A stretch of 64,000 nucleotides of DNA from the sequence record OM386656.1, one strand, 5' to 3'. Below, piece after piece: positions 16,906-64,000 of the stretch. The notes under the pieces were generated by a model, which worked only from the letters and a program-made list of their open reading frames with translations, was not told where the DNA came from and made no database searches. The DNA comes from Escherichia phage vB_EcoM_ESCO25. A program made the translations under genes and the position numbers. Each line of letters opens with the position of its first letter. The stretch's first letter is position 1.

Positions 16906-17793
16906 TCAGAATGGAATATCATCGTCGAAGTCCATTGGAGGTTCTTCTTGATTACTTGGAGTTGGTTCTGGTTGTGGTTCAGGCTTTTTAACTTCTTTCT
17001 TCTCTTCTTTCTTAGGTTGTTCTGCGGAACCACGAATGGCAGCAGCAACTTTATCAGACAAAGCTAGAACTTTACGAGCAGAGTCAATCAGATCTTCTAC
17101 AGATACAGTCTTAATGGTATGGTCTTTACAAGCATTGAGAATAGCGTGACCAACAGATGCCCCAAGATCATAATCATTAATATCAACGCCACGAGATTCA
17201 GCAATTTCAGATTTCAGCGTGACAGTTGCAGATTGAACAACCCCAGCGATATCGAAAGCATCGCCTTTAACACCATTACGAATCAGTTCCAGTGCACCAT
17301 TTACTGCGTGACCAGTTTCCAGACCTACAGTATCACGTTTTTTATAGGACTGCTTAGGGGCAGCATCGTTGGAACCTTTATTGCCAGAAGATTTGTTAGA
17401 CTTCTGAACACCATCGGTAGACAATACTGTAATACGAGATTTTTTAGTATTGTAGTAAGTTTTACCGCCTTTATTATCAACGCGATCAATATCAATACTT
17501 ACTTCTACACCTTTTTCAATAGTGATCCAATTATCACCTTCTTTGACTTGCAGGTTTTCATAACCTTCTTTCAGTTCAATGTCACCAAGAGAAATCCAAA
17601 CACCTTTCTCATCTGGTTTAGCACCTTTCTCTTTCAGAACAAGAGAGGCTCGGTGAGTTGAAACAATCGTTTTTCCTTCCCAATGAAAAGTTTTAGGTTC
17701 AGCGAATTTATCCAGTTTGACGTAGTCTACGATACCAGTTGCATAAGTTACGGTTTTGCCTTTACGATCAGTTTCAGTATTAATTACGGACAT
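16906..17793 (-). CDS. ssb: single-stranded DNA-binding protein with host-SSB-like acidic C-terminal tail
   Basis: 295-aa ORF ending EEPPMDFDDDIPF, near-identical to E. coli SSB tail tip; body not canonical OB-fold by eye. Confidence 0.65.
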   Translation of the reverse strand: MSVINTETDRKGKTVTYATGIVDYVKLDKFAEPKTFHWEGKTIVSTHRASLVLKEKGAKPDEKGVWISLGDIELKEGYENLQVKEGDNWITIEKGVEVSIDIDRVDNKGGKTYYNTKKSRITVLSTDGVQKSNKSSGNKGSNDAAPKQSYKKRDTVGLETGHAVNGALELIRNGVKGDAFDIAGVVQSATVTLKSEIAESRGVDINDYDLGASVGHAILNACKDHTIKTVSVEDLIDSARKVLALSDKVAAAIRGSAEQPKKEEKKEVKKPEPQPEPTPSNQEEPPMDFDDDIPF

Positions 17794-36563: not shown

Positions 36564-37538
36564 TTAAACAGTAGCTTCTTCTTTTTCAGGGAAGATAAAG
36601 CTTGCAATAACACCAAGAGATAATGTGCCTAGAACAATCATCAGACTTACGTTAGGGGAAATATCATGCGGGAGGAATGACCACTTGGCATGAAGTGTTT
36701 CACCGAACGGGTGATACATAAGTTTAGCACCAACAAACACCAGAACCACAGCAACAGCTTTCTCTAAGTGAACCAGATATTTCACAGCTACACTTAACAC
36801 AAAGAAAAGTGCACGTAAACCAAGAACAGCCATCAGCATTGCAGAATAAACTAGCAGAGGTTCTTGTGTCACACCGATCACAGCCGGAACTGAATCAAAA
36901 GAGAAGACAATATCTGTAAGCTCAATAACAAACACACAAAGAAGAGCAGGAGTTGCATATTTAATACCATTCTTAATGGTGATGAACTTTTCACCATCCA
37001 GTGCATTGTGCACAGGCAGAACTTTACCTACTAAACGAACAGCCCAATGTTTAGAGTAATCAATATCCTCTTCTTTGTCACCACCTTTGATGATAGCCAC
37101 GGCAGACCAAGCTACAATCAAACCGAACAACACTTGGACCGACCAATGAAGGTTAAACAAAGCGGTCCCTGCTGCAACAAAAATACCTCGGAAGACAATG
37201 GCTCCTGCAATCCCCCAAAGTAGAATCTTATGTTGGAGATGTGTGCTCTTAATTCCAAAGCTTGCAAAAATTGCCATGAACACCATTAGGTTATCTACAG
37301 AAAGACTCTTTTCCAACACATAGCCACTTAGGAAAAGCGCGGCAAACTCTTTACCATGTTCTACCCAAATGAATGCGTAATACCCTAAAGCTAAAGCAAT
37401 CCAAAAAACAGACCAAAGCAAAGCAGATTTAATTCCAATTTCTTTATTCTCTTTATGACCAAAGAAATCGATACCAATAGACAATGCTAAAATACCAACT
37501 AAAACAACTACATCAATAATTGGGAAACCGAGTTGCAT
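36564..37538 (-). CDS. terC: TerC-family integral membrane protein
   Basis: 324-aa polytopic ORF with LEKSLSVDNLMVF motif; own promoter-hairpin unit upstream. Confidence 0.8.
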   Translation of the reverse strand: MQLGFPIIDVVVLVGILALSIGIDFFGHKENKEIGIKSALLWSVFWIALALGYYAFIWVEHGKEFAALFLSGYVLEKSLSVDNLMVFMAIFASFGIKSTHLQHKILLWGIAGAIVFRGIFVAAGTALFNLHWSVQVLFGLIVAWSAVAIIKGGDKEEDIDYSKHWAVRLVGKVLPVHNALDGEKFITIKNGIKYATPALLCVFVIELTDIVFSFDSVPAVIGVTQEPLLVYSAMLMAVLGLRALFFVLSVAVKYLVHLEKAVAVVLVFVGAKLMYHPFGETLHAKWSFLPHDISPNVSLMIVLGTLSLGVIASFIFPEKEEATV

Positions 37539-37555
37539 TCTTTTCTCCTCTCTTT

Positions 37556-37614
37556 GCGGGGAACTATTCCCCGCTTCATGTGATATATCTTACTCTTTTT
37601 AAGAACTATGTCAA
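37556..37614 (-). promoter_or_regulatory. promoter plus 5' stem-loop unit driving terC (same family as right-end array)
   Basis: On - strand TTGACA, 16-nt spacer, TAAGAT, 12 nt, then GCGGGGAA-TAG-TTCCCCGC, then SD AGAGAGGAG and terC ATG. Confidence 0.6.
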
Positions 37615-57692: not shown

Positions 57693-58231
57693 GAATAACT
57701 GATGAATATGTATTCTTCTTTTCACATAAAGATGTGTTTAGTAATTGGTATATTGCACCCTTTACAGAAACTGAACCAGGTTACAATGAGACTTTCTGTT
57801 GTGTTGAGCAATATATGATGTGGCGTAAGGCTTTGCTGTTCAAGGATCATGCGATTGCAGCAGCTATCCTTGATCACTCAACTATACGTGACAACGAGAG
57901 GAAACAAGCATACTACAAACGTATGGGTCGAGCGGTATCTGGTTTTAATAATGATATGTGGGAAGAGAACCGTGAGCGTATTGTTATGCGAGGCTTATGC
58001 TTGAAATATGTACAGAATCCAGATTTGTATGCAGACTTACACCTTTACCAATACAAAACGTTTGTTGAAGCAAGTCCTTACGATAAGGTTTACGGTATTG
58101 GAATGGGAATGTATGAACCAGGGGTGCTAAACCCTGCTACCTGGAAAGGGCAGAATCTTTTAGGAAAATATCATAATAAACTGATCGAAATACTTTTCCC
58201 AGACAAAATACCGCAAAGACGATATTTGTGA
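57689..58231 (+). CDS. NADAR-domain (YbiA-like) protein
   Basis: 180-aa ORF; FFFSHKDVFSNWY, CVEQYMMWRKALLF and EASPYDKVYGIGMG match NADAR conserved blocks. Confidence 0.75.
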   Translation: MRITDEYVFFFSHKDVFSNWYIAPFTETEPGYNETFCCVEQYMMWRKALLFKDHAIAAAILDHSTIRDNERKQAYYKRMGRAVSGFNNDMWEENRERIVMRGLCLKYVQNPDLYADLHLYQYKTFVEASPYDKVYGIGMGMYEPGVLNPATWKGQNLLGKYHNKLIEILFPDKIPQRRYL

Positions 58232-58287
58232 TATTTTAACTTTTTTCATTTTTAGAACAAAGGTGTCACTTTGTAGCACAGAAATAA

Positions 58288-58322
58288 GGCTCCTACAGCA
58301 CCGTAGAGAGCCTGTTATTTTG
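58288..58322 (+). terminator. putative terminator after NADAR gene
   Basis: GGCTCCTAC-AGCACC-GTAGAGAGCC imperfect stem then TGTTATTTTG. Confidence 0.45.
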
Positions 58323-58456
58323 TCCTATACAAACCCTTGTCTTTTTCAGTTTGCATCACTAGGATTCGATCTGAGTGGGTTCCTGAAGGTTTACCAATAA
58401 GATTAAAGGTTATATCAAATTCCCACTATCTTTTATCTCAAAAATCCCTCAAATTA

Positions 58457-58521
58457 TTTAAACTTTTTAAGAATTTACAAAAGTGAAAGTTGAAAACCAA
58501 AATTTAAAGTTTAGGAAAATT
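58457..58521. repeat. AT-rich direct repeat, copy 1 (65 bp)
   Basis: About 85 percent identical by manual alignment to copy at 58595..58659; shared core TTTACAAAA.TGAAAGT..AAAA.CAAAATTTAAAGTTTA. Confidence 0.7.
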
Positions 58522-58594
58522 ATCTTAAAATATTAGATACAAAACAAAACTCAAAAGTCAAGGAAAATTTTAAAAATTTTGCGCGCCCACAGTA

Positions 58595-58659
58595 TTTAAA
58601 GTTTTTTTGCTTTTACAAAAATGAAAGTACAAAAGCAAAATTTAAAGTTTACAAAAATT
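58595..58659. repeat. AT-rich direct repeat, copy 2 (65 bp)
   Basis: Second copy; 10 mismatches in 65 positions versus copy 1. Confidence 0.7.
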
Positions 58660-58671
58660 TTTATGCAGGTG

Positions 58672-58790
58672 AAAATGAGAAGAGTTCTCATATGGAAATG
58701 CAAATGATAATGATTCGCATTTAAGTTTATAAATGAGATTGATTCTTATTTAATAAGGTAAATGACAATCATTCTCATTTAGAGAATGAC
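58672..58790. repeat. cluster of AAATGA / TCATTT dyad elements (iteron/operator-like)
   Basis: ATGAGAA-GAG-TTCTCAT perfect palindrome (58675-58691); AAATGC..GCATTT (58696-58722); AAATGAGA..TCTCATTT and TAAATGA..TCATTTA further right. Confidence 0.6.
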
Positions 58791-59009
58791 GCGCAGGGGC
58801 GGTGTTTGTCTCGCGCTCCCGTGTCCCCTCGCCATGTAATAAGAATAACAGATCCAGCCAGGAAAGCAAGCGATTATTTTATCTTTACATTTCTTTACAA
58901 ATATATAGCACCCAGCCTACCGGCGATCAACCTTCCAACCAGTGCCCCCTGGTATGTTAGCCCCGCCTTTACGCCGTGGGGTGGCGCTTCCTCTTCTGTA
59001 TGTAAAACA

Positions 59010-59036
59010 GTATAAGCCCGATCCCTGGGCTTGTCA
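59010..59036 (-). terminator. hairpin downstream of - strand gene 59040..59306
   Basis: AAGCCC-(7 nt)-GGGCTT inverted repeat; T-rich flank on both strands. Confidence 0.4.
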
Positions 59037-59039
59037 AGA

Positions 59040-59306
59040 TTATTTTTTGTTTTCTTGCCAGGATAGGACACCTAACCAAAAATACATATCGCCCCGCGCC
59101 CCTGGTGGTATCTTGCTTTCCCCGCCGCCACTGCAAGCCCATAGATAACCATTTGCGAACGTATCAAAATGATCTATCTCTTCCACCTTATGATCGCCCA
59201 GGTTGAGAACGGTTTCAACCTTTAAGCCCGTTGCGCTTGCTACCTGGTGCACCGTGCCGCCTTGCCAGCCCAATGAGTGCATAAGGTGTAATGTAGTATT
59301 TGTCAT
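59040..59306 (-). CDS. hypothetical protein in GC-richer right segment
   Basis: 88-aa ORF with GC-rich codon choice; own promoter plus 5' hairpin; SD AAGGG. Confidence 0.5.
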   Translation of the reverse strand: MTNTTLHLMHSLGWQGGTVHQVASATGLKVETVLNLGDHKVEEIDHFDTFANGYLWACSGGGESKIPPGARGDMYFWLGVLSWQENKK

Positions 59307-59328
59307 GATATCGCCCTTTCTTTGTTGT

Positions 59329-59382
59329 GCGCCCTGGTTGGCGCGGTAGAAAGATAATAGCCCTTTTCTTTATATATAGCAA
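59329..59382 (-). promoter_or_regulatory. promoter plus 5' stem-loop for - strand gene 59040..59306
   Basis: On - strand TTGCTA, 17-nt spacer, TATTAT, about 9 nt, then GCGCC-AACCAG-GGCGC hairpin, then SD. Confidence 0.5.
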
Positions 59383-59414
59383 GCAAAAAGAAAATAAAAA
59401 AGATTGAAAAATGG

Positions 59415-59473
59415 TTGACGTTAACCAGGCGGCGGCGTAGTATTCATCTTGTAGGGCGGCAATGGTGCCGCTC
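59415..59473 (+). promoter_or_regulatory. promoter-hairpin unit 1 (hairpin type A)
   Basis: TTGACG 59415-59420, 17-nt spacer, TAGTAT 59438-59443, 10 nt, GGGCGGC-AATGGT-GCCGCTC 59454-59473. Confidence 0.6.
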
Positions 59474-59492
59474 ACTATTTGGAGTTAAGATC

Positions 59493-59690
59493 ATGGCAAC
59501 ATTGCACATTGTGGCGAAAGCTGGACAAATCAACGTAGTGGTAAACGGTTTTACTGAGTTCAGTCACCCCCAGGATGATCATGAAACGGTTTTATCTTTC
59601 ATTGATTCCCTGTTAGAAATGGGAGTCATTACAGAAGACCAGCACGCTACAAAATGCAAGCGCGTTAATCAAATCGCAGGAATAGAATAA
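59493..59690 (+). CDS. small early-region protein
   Basis: ATG 59493 after promoter-hairpin unit and SD GGAG; upstream extension of track ORF lacks SD. Confidence 0.5.
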   Translation: MATLHIVAKAGQINVVVNGFTEFSHPQDDHETVLSFIDSLLEMGVITEDQHATKCKRVNQIAGIE

Positions 59691-59697
59691 AAACTAT

Positions 59698-59756
59698 TGA
59701 CAACAAACAACAACCTGATAAGATGTATCACATAGGGCGGGAAGTGGTTTCCCGCT
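59698..59756 (+). promoter_or_regulatory. promoter-hairpin unit 2 (hairpin type B)
   Basis: TTGACA 59698-59703, 16-nt spacer, TAAGAT 59720-59725, linker GTATCACATAGG, GCGGGAA-GTGGT-TTCCCGC 59738-59756. Confidence 0.6.
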
Positions 59757-59780
59757 CGTAACAGAAGAGAGATTATCATC

Positions 59781-60053
59781 ATGGCATCATATAGCGCAAC
59801 AATGATCGTAGCTGGCACAACTGGTAAACCTATGAGCGGTGGCGGATCTTTCGCTAATATCAATATTGACGGGCGTTTATCCCTGGACGCAGCGATCGCT
59901 ATTGCACGGGAAACATTTAAGAAAGAATGTAATTTCAACAAGCAAGATTATCTCGGTTTCGCTATTGAAAAAACCGCGCGCTTTGTTGATTATAAAAGCC
60001 CGAAAATGGTTGATACTACACTAAAAGCGCAAGATGTAGCGTTTTTGCTTTAA
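59781..60053 (+). CDS. small early-region protein
   Basis: 90-aa ORF after promoter-hairpin unit, SD AGAAGAGAG. Confidence 0.5.
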   Translation: MASYSATMIVAGTTGKPMSGGGSFANINIDGRLSLDAAIAIARETFKKECNFNKQDYLGFAIEKTARFVDYKSPKMVDTTLKAQDVAFLL

Positions 60054-60056
60054 GGC

Positions 60057-60111
60057 TTGACATTAACGAATAATTTGTTAATATGTTACATAAAGCGGGA
60101 ATAGTTCCCGC
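60057..60111 (+). promoter_or_regulatory. promoter-hairpin unit 3 (hairpin type B)
   Basis: TTGACA 60057-60062, 16-nt spacer, TAATAT 60079-60084, then GCGGGAA-TAG-TTCCCGC 60095-60111. Confidence 0.6.
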
Positions 60112-60129
60112 TATTTGTAAGGTGGTAGA

Positions 60130-60387
60130 ATGTTTTACATCAAATTAAAAGGTCACGTGATCGCGTTCAAAGATAACGCTTTTTACAGATTAGCAAAATA
60201 TGCGTTAATACATCCCCACTATGTTTATATAAGGAGGCGTGATGAAATAAATATCTTTGATCAAACAACATGCGAGAACATCGAGATCCGCAAGGTTGGC
60301 GTACGTGATTATCGTACATCTTTCTACCCTTGCAAGGATTCAGCAAGTCTTTTTAAAGTATGCCAATTGTTGAAAAAAGGTGGTTAA
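60130..60387 (+). CDS. small early-region protein
   Basis: 85-aa ORF after promoter-hairpin unit, SD AAGGTGG. Confidence 0.5.
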   Translation: MFYIKLKGHVIAFKDNAFYRLAKYALIHPHYVYIRRRDEINIFDQTTCENIEIRKVGVRDYRTSFYPCKDSASLFKVCQLLKKGG

Positions 60388-60388
60388 T

Positions 60389-60946
60389 ATGGGCCGCGAA
60401 TATGTGATCCAGTCTTGGGTAAAACATGAAGCAGATGATCCGCGCATCATTCCCGATCATCTTATCGATGAATCCACGGGATATAGCGGTGAGCAAATAG
60501 GTAACAGATTAGCACGTAGTAACGGCAACGTAAAAGCGCGTTATGTGCGCCCTGGTTGGCTGGCAAATGGTAACGCTGATTTATCCAGTGCGGAAGATGC
60601 GAGCGACGGCGCGAAAGATAATCCTTTGTACAAAGTTGATCCGGCTTTTCGTGTCCTGGATGAATACCCCAGCAAGATAGCGGCGCTCGATCAGGCCCTG
60701 GAAAGTAAGCGCATCACCTGGACCGCTTACAACATGGCAAAAAACGTACTTGATGGTAAATTGATTCAAGCTGAAAGAAAATTAGCCAAAATTGCAGCCA
60801 TAGCCCAGGAGGAAGACGAGGAGACAACGGAAGAGGAAGAGTACGAAGAGATCCCGCCGTTGTTGTGTGTTGATGCTTTTCCTGATTATCAGCCGACAGA
60901 GGAAGAAAAAAGGATCGCACTAGAAAACTTTGAAAATAGTCTTTGA
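60389..60946 (+). CDS. hypothetical protein with highly acidic C-terminal region
   Basis: ATG 60389; C-terminal EEDEETTEEEEYEEIPP tract. Confidence 0.5.
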   Translation: MGREYVIQSWVKHEADDPRIIPDHLIDESTGYSGEQIGNRLARSNGNVKARYVRPGWLANGNADLSSAEDASDGAKDNPLYKVDPAFRVLDEYPSKIAALDQALESKRITWTAYNMAKNVLDGKLIQAERKLAKIAAIAQEEDEETTEEEEYEEIPPLLCVDAFPDYQPTEEEKRIALENFENSL

Positions 60947-61001
60947 CATATCGCCGCCACTGGCATAATATTTACCACGTAGGGCGGCAATGGTGCCGCT
61001 C
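60943..61001 (+). promoter_or_regulatory. promoter-hairpin unit 4 (hairpin type A)
   Basis: TTGACA 60943-60948, 17-nt spacer, TAATAT 60966-60971, 10 nt, GGGCGGC-AATGGT-GCCGCTC 60982-61001. Confidence 0.6.
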
Positions 61002-61028
61002 ATAGTGAAATTATGCAAGAGGCTTACA

Positions 61029-61124
61029 ATGATTAATAAAGAAAATAGCTTGACGGTTGGAACGATTAACGCTATCATTCTAGCCGTTCCATTTTGGATT
61101 GTAGTAGCGGCTATTATTTTCTAA
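61029..61124 (+). CDS. hydrophobic micro-protein (31 aa)
   Basis: Promoter-hairpin unit then SD AAGAGG then ATG; single TM-like segment; below track cutoff. Confidence 0.4.
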   Translation: MINKENSLTVGTINAIILAVPFWIVVAAIIF

Positions 61125-61132
61125 AAATATTC

Positions 61133-61193
61133 TTGACAACGTTTTTTAATCTGATAAGATGTATCACATAGGGCGGCGGAATACTTCCCCGCC
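61133..61193 (+). promoter_or_regulatory. promoter-hairpin unit 5 (hairpin type C, bulged)
   Basis: TTGACA 61133-61138, 16-nt spacer, TAAGAT 61155-61160, linker GTATCACATA, GGCGGCGGAA-TAC-TTCCCCGCC 61172-61193. Confidence 0.6.
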
Positions 61194-61214
61194 AAAACAA
61201 AAAAGGGTAACACA

Positions 61215-61577
61215 ATGAGCAAGCAAATCAATACTATCATGTTAAACCTGGTATCCTTCCGCGATGATATGAAAAATTTACCACGTGAAACGGTTGATAT
61301 TCATGTTTCAGCTTATCGCGCCCTTATTGACATGTTACCGCTAAAACGTGATCAACATGCCGCTAACATGATGCTTAATGCTATGCTTAAAAAGATGATT
61401 CAAACGGATCTCATCCTGGCGTATGAGTATCAAGGGCGCTTATATGCTACTTACAACAAGGCGGTACCTGGTCTGGGAAGTACCGAAGAGTTGCACGGCT
61501 TAAACCTGGATCAGAACACTTGGGATAGTATGCGCCGCGTTATGGTATGGGCCGAAAGCGGTAAAATTTACGAATAA
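61215..61577 (+). CDS. small early-region protein
   Basis: 120-aa ORF after promoter-hairpin unit, SD AAAGGG. Confidence 0.5.
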   Translation: MSKQINTIMLNLVSFRDDMKNLPRETVDIHVSAYRALIDMLPLKRDQHAANMMLNAMLKKMIQTDLILAYEYQGRLYATYNKAVPGLGSTEELHGLNLDQNTWDSMRRVMVWAESGKIYE

Positions 61578-61582
61578 AACGG

Positions 61583-61639
61583 TTGACACTGTTTAAAATT
61601 CTGGTATAGTTTATCACGTAGGGCGGCAATGGTGCCGCC
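61583..61639 (+). promoter_or_regulatory. promoter-hairpin unit 6 (hairpin type A)
   Basis: TTGACA 61583-61588, 16-nt spacer, TATAGT 61605-61610, 10 nt, GGGCGGC-AATGGT-GCCGCC 61621-61639. Confidence 0.6.
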
Positions 61640-61659
61640 AACAATAAAAGGTTAACATC

Positions 61660-61839
61660 ATGACTATCATTGCAAAAACTGAGATTATAGGTTTAGATTC
61701 GATCCTCCTGGCTTATGAGGAAACTTTAAAAATGTATGTAGTGACCTATGGTGATTATGTGCGTGAATACGAATACATTGATCTTGCTTTCGAATGTTAC
61801 ATTCGCCAGGTCAATAAAGCCTATAACGATTATCGTTAA
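61660..61839 (+). CDS. small early-region protein (59 aa)
   Basis: Promoter-hairpin unit then SD AAAAGG then ATG; below track cutoff. Confidence 0.45.
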   Translation: MTIIAKTEIIGLDSILLAYEETLKMYVVTYGDYVREYEYIDLAFECYIRQVNKAYNDYR

Positions 61840-61858
61840 AAGTTTTAGTCTTATACTA

Positions 61859-61910
61859 TTGACAATGAGTGATAGTATAAGCATAATAACTTTTATCGGG
61901 AATACTTCCC
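61859..61910 (+). promoter_or_regulatory. promoter-hairpin unit 7 (degenerate hairpin)
   Basis: TTGACA 61859-61864, 17-nt spacer, CATAAT 61882-61887, then weak GGGAA-TAC-TTCCC 61898-61910. Confidence 0.5.
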
Positions 61911-61936
61911 ACTAACCAAAAAAAGAGAGTAATATC

Positions 61937-62302
61937 ATGGCTATTAATATCAATGTTTCCTCTTATGCTACCCTGGCTGACACGGCTAAAATTGAATTAT
62001 CCAGCATTGAGGCGGTGCATATTAGCGCCCGTCGTTGGTTTCAACAGTCCTACGGTAACACATATTTTTCTTTAATGGTTGACGTTGAGATCGGCGGTAA
62101 ACTGATCGAGGTGGTTAACGTTCCGTTTCAATATGGTTATGGTGATCATTTTGATACCGTCGCCCTGGAAGAATTTAGCAAGGTTATTAATATGGAAGGT
62201 AAAGAGTTTTCACGCGGCGCGTATCTTTCCCGTTTTTGCCGTGACAATGGGATCACTGTATACAGTCATGCAAGCGATGTTAAACGTAAAAAAGATTTAT
62301 AA
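61937..62302 (+). CDS. small early-region protein
   Basis: 121-aa ORF after promoter-hairpin unit, SD AAGAGAG. Confidence 0.5.
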   Translation: MAININVSSYATLADTAKIELSSIEAVHISARRWFQQSYGNTYFSLMVDVEIGGKLIEVVNVPFQYGYGDHFDTVALEEFSKVINMEGKEFSRGAYLSRFCRDNGITVYSHASDVKRKKDL

Positions 62303-62308
62303 AAAGCA

Positions 62309-62371
62309 TTGACAGCACGAATAAAAAGAGTAAACTGTATTACATCAAGGCGGCGGAATGGTCCACCGCCT
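62309..62371 (+). promoter_or_regulatory. promoter-hairpin unit 8 (hairpin type C)
   Basis: TTGACA 62309-62314, 16-nt spacer, TAAACT 62331-62336, linker GTATTACATCA, AGGCGGCGG-AATGGT-CCACCGCCT 62348-62371. Confidence 0.6.
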
Positions 62372-62394
62372 AACAAAGAGAAGAGGAAAACATC

Positions 62395-62562
62395 ATGATC
62401 ACTTTCGCTACCCGTGAAGCCGCTCGCAACGTTGCCCGTAAAGTTAACGCCGCCAACCTGGGCGCTACGCTTAAAGCCCCTGTAAAAGATGAATCAGGAA
62501 AATGGATCTTCCCTGGTCTGCGTCATGCTGACAAGTTAGGTACTTTAAGCCTTAAAAAATAA
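62395..62562 (+). CDS. small basic early-region protein (55 aa)
   Basis: Promoter-hairpin unit then SD GAGAAGAGGAAAA then ATG; shares first 21 nt with 62637 ORF. Confidence 0.45.
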   Translation: MITFATREAARNVARKVNAANLGATLKAPVKDESGKWIFPGLRHADKLGTLSLKK

Positions 62563-62565
62563 TCG

Positions 62566-62603
62566 TTGACTTTTCGTTATAGCGCCTTATAATGGGCGCT
62601 ATA
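62566..62603 (+). promoter_or_regulatory. promoter unit 9 with inverted repeat enclosing the -10 box
   Basis: TTGACT 62566-62571, 16-nt spacer, consensus TATAAT 62588-62593; 9-bp arms TATAGCGCC (62578-62586) and GGCGCTATA (62595-62603) flank the -10. Confidence 0.6.
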
Positions 62604-62636
62604 GAGAAGAGAAACCACTACTAACAAGGAAACATC

Positions 62637-62858
62637 ATGATCACTTTCGCTATTGTCGCCGTTGTCGCTGGTCAGGTTTACATAAACGATACATTCACCA
62701 CAGAAGACAAGGCCGCAGGAGACATAACCGCCGTTTACAATGAGTGCAAGGCAGTAGAAAGGATGTTAGCGCCTTGTATGCTAATGAGTGAACGCCAGGA
62801 CGGGATAACAGTATTTACTAACATTGAAACAGGGTACCAAATGGTAGTAACAAAATAA
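62637..62858 (+). CDS. small early-region protein with hydrophobic N-terminus
   Basis: 73-aa ORF after promoter with palindrome around -10. Confidence 0.5.
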   Translation: MITFAIVAVVAGQVYINDTFTTEDKAAGDITAVYNECKAVERMLAPCMLMSERQDGITVFTNIETGYQMVVTK

Positions 62859-62861
62859 AGC

Positions 62862-62918
62862 TTGACACGGATTTAATTTTTAGTAAACTGTTACACGTAG
62901 GGCGGGAATAGTTCCCGC
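62862..62918 (+). promoter_or_regulatory. promoter-hairpin unit 10 (hairpin type B)
   Basis: TTGACA 62862-62867, 16-nt spacer, TAAACT 62884-62889, linker GTTACACGTAGG, GCGGGAA-TAG-TTCCCGC 62902-62918. Confidence 0.6.
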
Positions 62919-62937
62919 TCAAAAAGAGAGAAAGACC

Positions 62938-63291
62938 ATGAAAGCACAAAATGCAATTAAAGAGTACATCCTTGCCGCTATCGATTTTAATGATTACGGT
63001 ATTACAACCGAAAAAGAGAAGATCGCGGAATTGATGCGCCGTTTTAATTCCGAGTACTGGTACCCTGATAACCAATCACGTTTTAATTATAGTATTGTTA
63101 AAGCACTTGCATCATGGTTACAAGGCTTGCCATCAGATATCAATATCGCTTTCGAATATTGGGAAATTGATCGCCTGTTAACATCCTGGGGATACATTAA
63201 AGAGAATAGCAGCGATGATAAAATCCAACGAGAAAGGGAAAATTATTGGCTTTATATTGCAGGCGTGATCCTTGCTTGCTCTTATGAATGA
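62938..63291 (+). CDS. small early-region protein
   Basis: 117-aa ORF after promoter-hairpin unit, SD AGAGAGAAAGA. Confidence 0.5.
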   Translation: MKAQNAIKEYILAAIDFNDYGITTEKEKIAELMRRFNSEYWYPDNQSRFNYSIVKALASWLQGLPSDINIAFEYWEIDRLLTSWGYIKENSSDDKIQRERENYWLYIAGVILACSYE

Positions 63292-63297
63292 TAAACC

Positions 63298-63351
63298 TTG
63301 ACAATTTTACAAAACAGTTTAAATTAACAATATAGCGGCAATGGTGCCGCT
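63298..63351 (+). promoter_or_regulatory. promoter-hairpin unit 11 (hairpin type A variant)
   Basis: TTGACA 63298-63303, about 16-nt spacer, TAAATT-like -10, then AGCGGC-AATGGT-GCCGCT 63334-63351. Confidence 0.55.
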
Positions 63352-63370
63352 CATATGAAGAGGAAACAAA

Positions 63371-63517
63371 ATGAATACATCTAATCGCGCAGAAAAAATT
63401 CAATCTTCCAAGATCCGCAAGGCCTGGAACGAGGAAGTGATCCGCAAAGGCGACAAGCGCAATAAAACAAAGCGTGGGAAGAGTGACAAATATAATTGGA
63501 TGGATTTAGAGGATTAA
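63371..63517 (+). CDS. highly basic micro-protein (48 aa)
   Basis: Promoter-hairpin unit then SD AAGAGGAAA then ATG; Lys/Arg-rich; terminator directly downstream. Confidence 0.45.
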   Translation: MNTSNRAEKIQSSKIRKAWNEEVIRKGDKRNKTKRGKSDKYNWMDLED

Positions 63518-63525
63518 CATAACAA

Positions 63526-63552
63526 GGGGCGCACCAAGCGCCCTTTCTTTTT
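63526..63552 (+). terminator. rho-independent terminator after 48-aa basic ORF
   Basis: GGGGCGC-ACCAA-GCGCCC then TTTCTTTTT. Confidence 0.7.
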
Positions 63553-63573
63553 ACATGTAGAGGATAAACAAAG

Positions 63574-63759
63574 ATGACTTTAAGCGAGCTTAAAACAGCC
63601 TACAACGCAACGTTAAAAATAGCCGTGCGTTACCGTGACGAATACGGTTTTATTGCGCAGGGCGTGATCCTGGGCTTTTCTGACGATGGTTTGATCTATG
63701 TTGATGCACATCACAATAAGGTTAAACCTGAAAACGTCATTAGCATAAAATATCTTTAA
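63574..63759 (+). CDS. small early-region protein
   Basis: 61-aa ORF, SD GAGGAT. Confidence 0.45.
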   Translation: MTLSELKTAYNATLKIAVRYRDEYGFIAQGVILGFSDDGLIYVDAHHNKVKPENVISIKYL

Positions 63760-63765
63760 AAGTGG

Positions 63766-63824
63766 TTGACACCATAACCGGACCTGTTAAACTGTATTAC
63801 ATCAGGCGGGGAATAGTTCCCACC
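63766..63824 (+). promoter_or_regulatory. promoter-hairpin unit 12 (hairpin type B variant)
   Basis: TTGACA 63766-63771, 16-nt spacer, TAAACT 63788-63793, linker GTATTACATCA, GGCGGGGAA-TAG-TTCCCACC 63805-63824. Confidence 0.55.
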
Positions 63825-63843
63825 ATACAAAAAGGTAAATATT

Positions 63844-64000
63844 ATGATCACCGCAAAACAAGAAAAAATCATTATCGACGTTGCAGCCGTTGCTGCTATT
63901 GCTATTATTGGATCTTATTATGACACCGCGCGTCCTTCCTCCTTGCATGAGGTCGCCGCCGTTGCATCAGTTGGCGTACTGTTTTACGTTGGTAAACGCT
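63844..64000 (+). CDS. early-region protein, 3' end beyond window
   Basis: ATG 63844 after promoter-hairpin unit (SD AAAGG); hydrophobic N-terminus; runs off window end. Confidence 0.45.
   Translation, partial: MITAKQEKIIIDVAAVAAIAIIGSYYDTARPSSLHEVAAVASVGVLFYVGKR

Follow-up and report, generated by a model that had tools for sequence, protein, structure and literature searches.

Tandem sigma70-type promoters and stem-loops ahead of small genes in a Phapecoctavirus resemble promoter-early stem-loops

The 64,000-nt window analysed here is part of the ~150-kb genome of Escherichia phage vB_EcoM_ESCO25 (OM386656.1), a phAPEC8-like myovirus of E. coli that belongs to Phapecoctavirus. Its positions 59415-64000 hold the first half of an array of small genes with unknown functions, ~10 kb in total, which runs past the end of the window; in the closest relative it comprises ~10 kb and ~20 units. 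In these 4.6 kb the + strand has twelve near-consensus sigma70 promoters, all rightward, with -35 elements starting at 59415, 59697, 60057, 60943, 61133, 61583, 61859, 62309, 62566, 62862, 63298, and 63766. Ten of the -35 hexamers read TTGACA, and the other two are TTGACG (unit 1) and TTGACT (unit 9); the spacer measures 16-17 nt, the -10 element reads TAnnnT or CATAAT, and five of the twelve have an extended -10 (TGn). Each promoter leads to an ORF, with sizes from 31 to 185 aa as had been claimed, and the twelve units bear out the original prediction of a tandem series of sigma70 promoter, stem-loop, Shine-Dalgarno sequence (SD) and small ORF. The ten ORFs that were scanned all fall into PHROG families without an assigned function and match nothing in Pfam, and the four largest gave no significant match to solved structures. 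A role of the products in host takeover or anti-defence, as had been suggested, would be conjecture.

Unit 1 (59415..59492; all twelve on the + strand, MFE values in kcal/mol) combines the -35 TTGACG at 59415-59420 and the -10 TAGTAT at 59438-59443 with the family a hairpin GGGCGGCAATGGTGCCGCTC at 59454-59473 (MFE -14.6, z -2.5, 50.6 bits with covariance model R1) and an ORF of 65 aa at 59493-59690. Unit 2 (59697..59780) has TTGACA, an extended -10 TGaTAAGAT ending at 59724 and a family b hairpin at 59735-59757 (GGGCGGGAA/TTTCCCGCTC; MFE -15.5, z -3.0), and its ORF at 59781-60053 encodes 90 aa. The third unit (60057..60129; TTGACA, -10 TAATAT at 60079-60084, hairpin AGCGGGAATAGTTCCCGCT at 60094-60112 with MFE -12.4 and z -2.4) precedes a gene pair, in which an 85-aa ORF at 60130-60387 is abutted by an ORF of 185 aa with an acidic tail at 60389-60946. 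The stop codon of the latter is overlapped by the TTGACA of unit 4 (60943..61028), which continues with a -10 TAATAT at 60966-60971, a family a hairpin at 60982-61001 (MFE -14.7, covariance model 56.6 bits) and an ORF at 61029-61124 for a hydrophobic peptide of 31 aa.

Unit 5 (61133..61214) consists of TTGACA, an extended -10 TGaTAAGAT ending at 61160 and a family c hairpin with an internal C.C mismatch at 61172-61193 (MFE -14.0, z -2.2), ahead of a 120-aa ORF at 61215-61577. It is followed by unit 6 (61583..61659), where TTGACA and the extended -10 TGgTATAGT ending at 61610 precede the hairpin GGCGGCAATGGTGCCGCC at 61622-61639 (MFE -14.4, z -2.8) and a 59-aa ORF at 61660-61839. The hairpin of unit 7 (61859..61936; TTGACA, -10 CATAAT at 61882-61887) is degraded, being a weak stem of 5 bp at 61898-61910 (MFE -5.5, z -1.1), and the ORF behind it at 61937-62302 encodes 121 aa. 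Unit 8 (62309..62394) again has TTGACA, a -10 TAAACT at 62331-62336 and a family c hairpin, here with a C.A mismatch, at 62348-62371 (MFE -15.8, z -3.6), with a 55-aa ORF at 62395-62562.

In unit 9 (62566..62636; TTGACT, -10 TATAAT at 62588-62593) the inverted repeat TATAGCGCC (62578-62586) and GGCGCTATA (62595-62603) encloses the -10 element, no leader hairpin is formed (leader MFE 0), and an ORF of 73 aa lies at 62637-62858. Unit 10 (62862..62937) contains TTGACA, the -10 TAAACT at 62884-62889, a family b hairpin at 62900-62920 (MFE -14.9, z -4.0) and a 117-aa ORF at 62938-63291, while unit 11 (63298..63370) contains TTGACA, the -10 TAAATT at 63320-63325 and the hairpin AGCGGCAATGGTGCCGCT at 63334-63351 (MFE -11.4, z -2.9, covariance model 43.2 bits) ahead of a basic 48-aa ORF at 63371-63517. 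Next comes the sole canonical intrinsic terminator of the segment (63524..63546, + strand), a 9-bp stem followed by CTTTTT which is annotated as a terminator in the phAPEC8 record (position 1-17), and after it a promoterless ORF of 61 aa at 63574-63759 (+ strand). The last unit in the window, unit 12 (63766..63843), has TTGACA, an extended -10 TGtTAAACT ending at 63793 and a hairpin with a C.A mismatch at 63805-63824 (MFE -9.3, z -2.1); its ORF starts at 63844 and leaves the window.

Upstream of 59415, a leftward promoter (59009..59037, - strand; TTGACA, 17-nt spacer, -10 TATACT) faces a GC-rich stretch at 58800-59000 which contains no ORF of 60 aa or more. It had been taken for a unit of the same type, but its inverted repeat, AGCCC..GGGCT, lies within the spacer and there is no hairpin downstream. 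An isolated unit of the array type is present on the - strand at 37539..37614, with TTGACA at 37614-37609, TAAGAT at 37592-37587 and the hairpin GCGGGGAATAGTTCCCCGC at 37574-37556, upstream of a 324-aa ORF (36564-37538); the same site in the relative REC is upstream of an "integral membrane protein".

The array of promoters and hairpins is not due to chance, as was confirmed with 300 dinucleotide shuffles of the + strand between 59400 and 64000. The native strand has 14 strong promoter-like sites there, and the leaders of 11 fold at -9 kcal/mol or below, compared with a mean of 1.55 sites (maximum 6) and of 0.05 sites with a hairpin (maximum 2) in the shuffles. The segment had also been described as GC-richer with host-like codon choice, and this stands for GC content to a modest degree: 41.4% GC against 39.3% for the window, a level exceeded in several other parts of the window which reach 42-44%, and a third-position GC of 0.42 in the array ORFs against 0.32 +/- 0.07 in 40 long ORFs elsewhere.

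Every unit had been expected to carry a hairpin downstream of its promoter. This applies to ten of the twelve rightward units, in which a GC hairpin with an MFE between -9.3 and -15.8 kcal/mol starts 8-12 nt past the -10, a fixed spacing that may partly reflect common descent because the units are paralogues; the exceptions are the weak stem at 61859 and the repeat around the -10 at 62566. Nine of the twelve leaders reach a z of -2.0 or less. Downstream of the -10 lies a conserved linker motif, CAC(A/G)TAG, and the order is then GC hairpin, unpaired A-rich spacer, SD, and ATG; in all folded leaders the hairpin is limited to the 5' part, and SD and AUG are unpaired. A position at the extreme 5' end of the mRNA would be the most natural reading of this geometry.

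The three stem families that had been proposed were all recovered (GCGGCA/TGCCGC, GCGGGAA/TTCCCGC, and GGCGG-C-GGA(A) with an internal C.A or C.C mismatch). Paired cells account for 95.7% in the hairpin alignment; families a and b differ by a C-G to G-C swap, and one pair runs through G.U, G-C and A-U. The covariance model of the hairpin finds matches in the arrays alone, on the coding strand; the remaining sequence of the closest relative (135 kb) and of the window (58 kb) contains no match. Among relatives, at least six stem and at least eight loop sequences occupy the hairpin position, and the 120-aa ORF has orthologues in Phapecoctavirus, phi92, a Vequintavirus and a jumbo phage which all retain the promoter and the hairpin position, with four different stems. 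An apparent selection of the hairpin for structure, not sequence, speaks for the reading developed below; some substitutions in relatives do disrupt stem pairs. Wobbles appear as sense-strand G.U pairs in families a and b and as C.A, that is antisense-strand G.U, in family c, an asymmetry that does not settle which strand acts.

Comparison of the window with eight relatives places all indel and replacement junctions except one at units. Unit 8 is a chimera of two REC units, with three cassettes missing, and a three-way alignment puts the crossover within a shared stretch of 16 nt, GTAAACTGTATTACAT. In phage nepoznato, exactly the promoter-hairpin unit 10 is absent. The intergenic units +/-12 nt make up 30% of the full REC array and contain 23 of its 28 junction clusters (binomial 2e-8), an enrichment that is partly expected because indels which disrupt ORFs are selected against. 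The junction points themselves vary between the -10/linker, the edge of the hairpin, the 5'UTR, and ATCATG or the first codons, and identical units are common to unrelated lineages. On genome sequence evidence, this junction mapping shows exchange at the units.

The array unit is probably an early-expression cassette whose hairpin would give mRNA stability or insulation and whose repetition supplies homology for recombination. Each cassette would be a self-contained gene or gene pair of the PeSL (promoter-early stem-loop) kind, in the order previous stop codon, A/T-rich stretch of a few nt, sigma70 promoter, linker, GC stem-loop, A-rich spacer, SD, and ATG. Because the promoters match the consensus and PeSL promoter strength has been measured in RB49/phi1, host sigma70 RNA polymerase may be expected to fire at all units soon after DNA entry. 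By consensus geometry, transcription would start at the purine in CAC(A/G)TAG, 6-8 nt past the -10, so that the first 25-30 nt of the mRNA would fold as the hairpin and leave ~2-5 unpaired nt at the 5' end. As in known 5'-terminal stem-loops, this could shield the mRNA against 5'-end-dependent decay and leave the ribosome site accessible. On read-through RNA the same hairpin would follow the upstream ORF and could stabilise its 3' end or weakly attenuate transcription. The 70-90-bp units, with ~20 copies in the same orientation, would supply the homology for the deletion, insertion and exchange of cassettes that the junction mapping shows.

In unit 9 and at the leftward promoter the repeat lies within the promoter and cannot form the 5' end of the transcript made there; one function for all positions would need read-through RNA or DNA to act on. 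The phage also has sigma70-like promoters that function with no hairpin.

It is rather unlikely that the hairpins are terminators or attenuators which insulate the cassettes from upstream read-through, the original reading of PeSLs, with promoter and hairpin adjacent merely because intergenic space is tiny. Placed between a promoter and lacZ, a PeSL stem-loop of RB49/phi1 reduced expression to a degree similar to rrnB T1 (PMC2839356, PMC4122927), the GenBank record ASO2A calls unit 62862 a "terminator", and neither unit 62566 nor the leftward promoter can have its hairpin in its own transcript. However, no unit hairpin is recognised by a terminator scan of the + strand, the stems are followed by A-rich tails (CAAAAAGAGAG, CAACAATAAAAGG, etc.) instead of U-rich ones, the one canonical terminator of the array lies elsewhere, and termination leaves the fixed site just past the predicted start unexplained.

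More doubtful is a single dedicated factor that would recognise the hairpin, either as RNA (boxB/put-like antitermination, a signal modifying RNA polymerase, or a translational or decay regulator) or as DNA (an operator or a phage-specific promoter, as in the PHIRE annotation of the phAPEC8 record). The 20-mer GTAGGGCGGCAATGGTGCCG, annotated "putative promoter determined with PHIRE", recurs, and there is fair conservation of the A-T-R-G loops and of the GGGCGG with which the 5' arm starts. The boxB/put-like signal or single regulator site of the original prediction is nevertheless weakened by the many stems and loops found at one position, even before orthologous genes. The complete REC genome has no annotated RNA polymerase gene, and antitermination loses further ground because one canonical terminator in 4.6 kb leaves almost nothing to override. 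Active, integron-like site-specific recombination at the hairpin, with secondary effects on expression, would suit the cassette architecture, the identical units of unrelated lineages, and the findings in RB49/phi1 of PeSL mini-circles by inverse PCR and of one crossover in the loop of a stem-loop (PMC2839356, PMC4122927), but it is very improbable, as the varied junctions fit homologous or microhomology exchange and not one cleavage site, and no dedicated recombinase is annotated beside the array.

The hairpin has no match in Rfam. Short hairpins near early promoters are shared with lambda nut (boxA/boxB), HK022 put and the promoters of the N4 virion RNA polymerase. By contrast, the loops here are not boxB-like pentaloops and no N-like target terminators are annotated, the two-stem put fold is absent and the stems are diverse, and no virion RNA polymerase gene is annotated. 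Stabilising 5'-terminal stem-loops include the 5' hairpin of E. coli ompA and the late phi10 leader of T7, GGGAGACCACAACGGUUUCCC. The predicted leaders resemble them in having a stable hairpin a few nt from the 5' end and then an open ribosome-binding region, whereas they differ in their host sigma70 promoter, their predicted start and the lack of an annotated phage RNA polymerase. By eye, linker and stem (TCACATAGGGCGGGAAGTGGTTTCCCGCTC) also resemble the phi10 start region (TCACTATAGGGAGACCACAACGGTTTCCCTC), which is probably coincidental.

Contrary to the original prediction, the system has been described. PeSLs, with their anatomy, subclasses and role in shuffling, were reported for RB49/phi1, T4/PST and KVP40/nt-1 (Arbiol et al. 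2010, PMC2839356; Comeau et al. 2014, PMC4122927), and the phAPEC8 GenBank record (JX561091, 2012) annotates both halves of the unit, separately. The sequences in that record are the same, its MEME "host dependent promoter" entries being the sigma70 promoters and its PHIRE 20-mers the hairpins, but they are given as two types of promoter, and the hairpin, the composite unit and a role in cassette exchange are absent. By their sequence features, the array units fit the PeSL class: a near-consensus sigma70 promoter adjoins a GC-rich stem-loop, an A/T-rich stretch with the previous stop codon lies upstream and SD and ATG at the 3' end, dense tandem copies lie among small ORFs of unknown function in a hyperplastic region, and indel or replacement junctions of close relatives fall at the elements. 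PeSL stem-loops have been described at five positions, and the window has examples of three, namely past the -10, overlapping the -10 (unit 62566), and between -35 and -10 (the leftward promoter at 59037). Differences are the hosts of the element, which are Stephanstirmvirinae (also Vequintavirinae and jumbo coliphages) and not T4-like phages, and the stem sequences. The stem-loop also lies mostly inside the promoter in RB49/phi1 and upstream of it in PST, while 10 of 12 are fixed in the transcribed leader here and therefore should belong to the unit's own mRNA. The promoter-hairpin architecture extends to phi92, Bas59 and fEgEco12. New are the presence of the unit in phi92-like, rV5-like and jumbo coliphages, the retention of the hairpin position at orthologous genes despite changed stem sequences, and the indel junctions of relatives inside units, including one clear chimeric unit.

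The DNA between 59415 and 64000 is organised as a tandem array of twelve rightward units, recognised by reading the sequence and by scanning it for TTGACN/TAnnnT pairs. Their -35 hexamers start on the + strand at 59415, 59697, 60057, 60943, 61133, 61583, 61859, 62309, 62566, 62862, 63298 and 63766, and the units are named after these positions. The -35 element is TTGACA in ten of the twelve and TTGACG or TTGACT in the remainder, and is followed in all of them by a spacer of 16-17 nt and a -10 element of the TAnnnT type, extended (TGn) in five. A GC-rich hairpin begins 8-12 nt past the -10 element in ten units; folded from the expected start to the ATG, these ten leaders have minimum free energies of -9.3 to -15.8 kcal/mol, and nine of the twelve leaders reach z <= -2 against dinucleotide shuffles. 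In every case the fold places the hairpin within the first 25-30 nt of the leader and leaves the Shine-Dalgarno region and the AUG unpaired. The arrangement of promoter, linker, hairpin, Shine-Dalgarno sequence and ORF had thus been correctly described in the original prediction, as had the three stem families (a, GCGGCA/TGCCGC; b, GCGGGAA/TTCCCGC; c, GGCGG-C-GGA(A) with an internal C.A or C.C mismatch), which are real and can be seen in the sequence.

The exceptions are few. Unit 61859 has a weak stem of only 5 bp, in unit 62566 a 9-bp inverted repeat surrounds the -10 hexamer, and the leftward promoter at 59037 (- strand) carries an inverted repeat inside its spacer and has no downstream hairpin. 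The stop codon that precedes a unit lies at most 19 nt before the -35 element and within about 8 nt of it in 10 of the 11 units that follow an array ORF; in unit 60943 the -35 element overlaps the stop codon itself. The 20 nt upstream of the units are A/T-rich, and each unit leads into a Shine-Dalgarno sequence and the ATG of an ORF, the array ORFs ranging from 31 to 185 aa. Chance does not account for this pattern: the + strand of 59400-64000 holds 14 strong promoter-like sites, 11 of which have a leader that folds at -9 kcal/mol or below, against means of 1.55 and 0.05 over 300 dinucleotide-shuffled sequences. Just one such site occurs on the minus strand there, and it has no hairpin. The analysis shows that the units are genuine and non-random, that they are confined to the array and structurally conserved across phage lineages, and that cassettes are exchanged at them.

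The 5.8 kb around the array is 99.7% identical to Escherichia phage vB_EcoM_REC (REC), the closest relative, and to ESCO37, and 94-98% identical to many other genomes of Phapecoctavirus, the phAPEC8-like myoviruses of about 150 kb in the subfamily Stephanstirmvirinae. Several relatives match this DNA in 2-8 separate pieces scattered over as much as 12 kb, which was a first sign of variable gene content here, and the gene content of the array does vary among eight relatives. The array of the complete REC genome extends over about 10 kb with about 20 units, of which the window holds the first half, and a single array-type unit is found outside it in 156 kb. The counterpart of this lone unit in the window is a promoter-hairpin at 37539-37614 (- strand), situated in the replication and nucleotide-metabolism region and followed downstream by an ORF for a 324-aa membrane protein (36564-37538, - strand). 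No hairpin is present in the short A-rich leaders behind the other sigma70-like promoters of the phage, which stand before the replication and nucleotide-metabolism operons. As a MAFFT alignment of all hairpin families left the 3' arms misregistered, a covariance model was built from family a and its structure-aware alignment was used. This model matches the arrays only, essentially on the coding strand only, with no match in the other 135 kb of REC. A distant blastn search with one unit matched only Phapecoctavirus-like records and a few Klebsiella phages; because such short queries reached few phage groups, the wider distribution was traced by fetching loci through a protein homologue, and arrays of the same design were found in phi92, in the Vequintavirus (rV5-like) Bas59 and in the jumbo phage fEgEco12.

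Several deposited records begin or end inside the array, so that it is split in linear annotation. The phAPEC8 record (JX561091) opens in the middle of it, at a terminator corresponding to 63524-63546 (its 1-17), and in phi92 the end of the array adjoins the annotated right direct terminal repeat. Directly upstream of the array lies about 1.1 kb of non-coding DNA (58240-59400), with AT-rich direct repeats (72 nt twice, at 58450 and 58588, and 29 nt three times), three Fur-box-like palindromes in tandem, with a spacing of about 35 bp (58696-58722, 58730-58752 and 58759-58781; e.g. TAAATGACAATCATTCTCATTTA) and, downstream of the leftward promoter, a GC-rich stretch (58790-59010) without an ORF of at least 60 aa. 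This region could be an origin, an iron- or Fur-linked element, or a non-coding RNA.

The original prediction had also called the segment GC-richer, with host-like codon choice, and this holds to a modest degree. The GC content is 41.4% in the array against 39.3% in the window, which overall has other, equally GC-rich parts, and third-position GC is 0.42 in the array ORFs (59493-63759) against 0.32 +/- 0.07 in 40 long ORFs elsewhere in the window. The raised third-position GC fits either a different evolutionary history, with a flux of cassettes between phages, or an adaptation to the tRNAs that the host offers when infection begins. As to the products, ten array ORFs scanned had no match in Pfam, PHROGs returned families of unknown function only, and a PDB sequence search with the four largest gave no significant match.

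In the model-based alignment of the hairpins, 95.7% of the cells are in standard pairs. One stem pair alternates between C-G (14 sequences) and G-C (6), and another between G.U (13), G-C (8) and A-U (2). None of 500 column shuffles, and none of the slid registers, reaches the covariation score, with the caveat that the units are paralogues and that the alignment leans to the model. Wobble pairs occur as G.U on the sense strand in families a and b, and as C.A, which would be G.U on the other strand, in family c; as a guide to the acting strand they point to sense in the first two families and to antisense in the third. Stronger evidence for structural selection than this covariation among paralogues comes from orthologous genes. 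The 120-aa ORF at window position 61215 has homologues in rV5-like, jumbo and phi92-like coliphages, and each of the four lineages examined has a sigma70-type promoter and a GC hairpin at the same distance before the gene. The stems are GGCGGCGGAA/TTCCCCGCC in the window, GGCGGGAAA/TTTCCCGCC in phi92, GGGGCAA/TTGCCCC in Bas59 and GCGGGAA/TTCCCGC in fEgEco12. As the stems differ at orthologous genes, it is complementarity at a fixed position, not one particular sequence, that is conserved, and this argues against a single sequence-specific binding site.

Among four jumbo coliphage matches (350-375 kb) to this ORF (61215-61577), three have homologues that are 58-63% identical and lie near the start of the deposited record, and homologues in Erwinia jumbo phages are 37-43% identical. 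On the fetched locus, the homologue paired with window 61215-61577 has the coordinates 1689-2108. In fEgEco12, the single jumbo phage inspected, a promoter and hairpin of its own precede the homologue. The jumbo homologues point to a sharing of cassettes across very different phage groups. About 20 records labelled "Campylobacter phage" (MG0656xx, host C. jejuni) also match the array or the 120-aa ORF; phage B15 has about 96% DNA identity to the array, and the other listed records match the ORF at 67-73% amino acid identity, as rV5- and phi92-like coliphages do. The host labels of these records look doubtful.

Comparison of the window with eight relatives places all breaks of collinearity but one in a unit. 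Unit 62309 is the clearest case: its left part (the end of the upstream ORF, the -35 element and the spacer) corresponds to one REC unit, and its right part (hairpin, Shine-Dalgarno sequence and ORF) to a second REC unit 925 bp downstream, with three REC cassettes absent from the window. The crossover must lie in GTAAACTGTATTACAT, because both REC units share these 16 nt of -10 element and linker. Other junctions coincide with the edge of the hairpin or lie within the 5'UTR or the conserved ATCATG start context, and nepoznato, another relative, lacks the promoter-hairpin unit 62862 alone (about 60 bp). When the whole REC array is compared with seven relatives, the intergenic units with 12 nt on either side account for 30% of its length but contain 23 of the 28 junction clusters (binomial 2e-8), although part of this enrichment is to be expected anyway because selection acts against indels inside ORFs. 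The chimeric units show that exchange within the repeats really occurs. Since the crossover points vary along the unit, homologous or microhomology exchange fits better than a site-specific system.

Two neighbouring cassettes have the leader end and the first five codons in common (62381-62410 and 62623-62652; ATGATCACTTTCGCT, MITFA), and a third ORF (63844) begins with MIT. The homology used in recombination therefore seems to reach into the coding sequence, giving chimeric N-termini. P3322 and ECO340P1 have, in place of the first unit's hairpin and leader (window 59452-59480), a different leader of about 113 bp (TCGAGGGGGGCGCGGCACAACGA...; 2750-2864 of the relative), and a phi92 unit at 17745 has a similar leader start. 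The 113-bp sequence is an alternative leader of the first cassette.

The working model that these results favour is as follows. The units would be strong early promoters for the host RNA polymerase, to judge from their consensus and from reporter data on related elements of RB49 and phi1. The geometry predicts a start at the purine in the conserved CAC(A/G)TAG, 6-8 nt past the -10 element, so that the hairpin would form a 5'-terminal mRNA structure preceded by about 2-5 free nt. Stem-loops at the 5' terminus are familiar from the ompA leader and the T7 late leader. By analogy with these, the hairpin would shield the short transcripts from 5'-end-dependent decay while the ribosome site stays open. 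The Shine-Dalgarno sequences of the array transcripts look weaker by eye. In read-through RNA the same hairpin would lie 3' of the upstream ORF, where it could act as a 3' barrier or a weak attenuator.

The main rival to a 5' stabiliser is the original view of promoter-early stem-loops (PeSLs), the elements known from T4-like phages, in which the stem-loop terminates or attenuates transcription arriving from upstream. Two promoters of the window carry the repeat where their own RNA cannot include it, which speaks for this view, but the stems have A-rich, not U-rich, tails, and a terminator scan of the + strand called none of the unit hairpins. The one canonical terminator of the array lies elsewhere (63524-63546), and among the strong GC hairpins on the + strand it alone has a U-tract, so intrinsic termination was rejected for the units. 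A different role is that the 5' hairpin may be a "self" mark common to early phage mRNAs, by which they would escape a shut-off nuclease. This is the less radical relative of a reading that we regard as very improbable, namely that the unit is more than passive homology and forms an actively recognised, integron-like site, at which a dedicated phage or host factor bound to the hairpin moves cassettes of unknown function between unrelated virulent coliphage lineages; these would be the phi92-like, rV5-like, jumbo and possibly RB49-like phages. An integron attC site was rejected, as crossovers occur at several points of the unit and no integrase is annotated near the array. The suggestion of a boxB/put-like antitermination signal in the original prediction also fails: an Rfam scan of 58000-64000 at E <= 1 gave no match, only one terminator is present in 4.6 kb, and the loops vary (ATGG, ATAG, TAG, GTGGT, TAC, CAC, ACAAG, GACGT), whereas lambda nut requires boxA and a boxB of conserved pentaloop, HK022 put its two-stem fold, and both of them terminators further on to override; nut and put were accordingly rejected. 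The linker TCACATAGGG is like the T7 core TCACTATAGGG, and linker plus stem (TCACATAGGGCGGGAAGTGGTTTCCCGCTC, 59724-59760 and equivalents) resembles by eye the T7 phi10 core with its 5' leader hairpin (TCACTATAGGGAGACCACAACGGTTTCCCTC); as the complete REC genome has no annotated phage RNA polymerase, a T7-like promoter was rejected and the phi10 resemblance is probably a coincidence. An N4-type hairpin promoter was rejected because a defining feature is missing.

Small early genes of unknown function number in the hundreds in large virulent phages; many of them are thought to serve host takeover or anti-defence, and how they are exchanged so freely is poorly understood. If PeSL-type cassettes are present in phi92-like, rV5-like and jumbo coliphages too, and orthologous genes there retain the hairpin as its sequence changes, such cassettes would be a general device and not a T4 curiosity, and one in which a portable linker for recombination comes together with autonomous early expression. 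A simple test between a 5' mRNA stabiliser and a terminator is offered by the fixed leader position. For annotation the units, which current records variously call promoter, terminator or nothing, delimit the cassettes, and for the engineering of therapeutic phages in this group they show where insertions are safe and are compact, strong expression modules.

In the original prediction the array was not recognised as a described system, which needs to be corrected. The 2012 phAPEC8 record already annotates both halves of the unit, the sigma70 parts as "host dependent promoter (MEME)" and the hairpin 20-mers (GTAGGGCGGCAATGGTGCCG) as "putative promoter (PHIRE)", and another GenBank record labels one unit a terminator. 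The anatomy, moreover, matches that of PeSLs, reported from RB49/phi1 by Arbiol et al. 2010 (PMC2839356) and from T4/PST and KVP40/nt-1 by Comeau et al. 2014 (PMC4122927). Our literature search found PeSL reports for T4-like phages only, no account of the composite unit for phAPEC8-, phi92- or rV5-like phages, and no study of transcriptomes or start sites for Phapecoctavirus or Vequintavirus. PeSLs consist of a strong sigma70-like promoter with an A/T-rich upstream region containing the prior stop codon, a GC stem-loop at any of five positions relative to the promoter, and then a Shine-Dalgarno sequence and ATG; they cluster among small ORFs without known function in hyperplastic regions and have been implicated in modular shuffling and mini-circle formation (PMC2839356, PMC4122927). 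Promoter, adjacent G/C-rich stem-loop, A/T-rich stop-codon region and SD/ATG are all present here, as are the clustering among small non-conserved ORFs and the indel and replacement junctions at the elements. Three of the five positional subclasses occur in the window, with the stem-loop downstream of the -10 element, overlapping it, or between -35 and -10. The array therefore belongs to the PeSL promoter/stem-loop cassettes, in a phage group for which such arrays were undescribed, and is not a new kind of system. It is distinguished by its strong preference for the transcribed-leader position, and by the evidence that its design and some of its units are common to phi92-like, rV5-like and jumbo coliphages.
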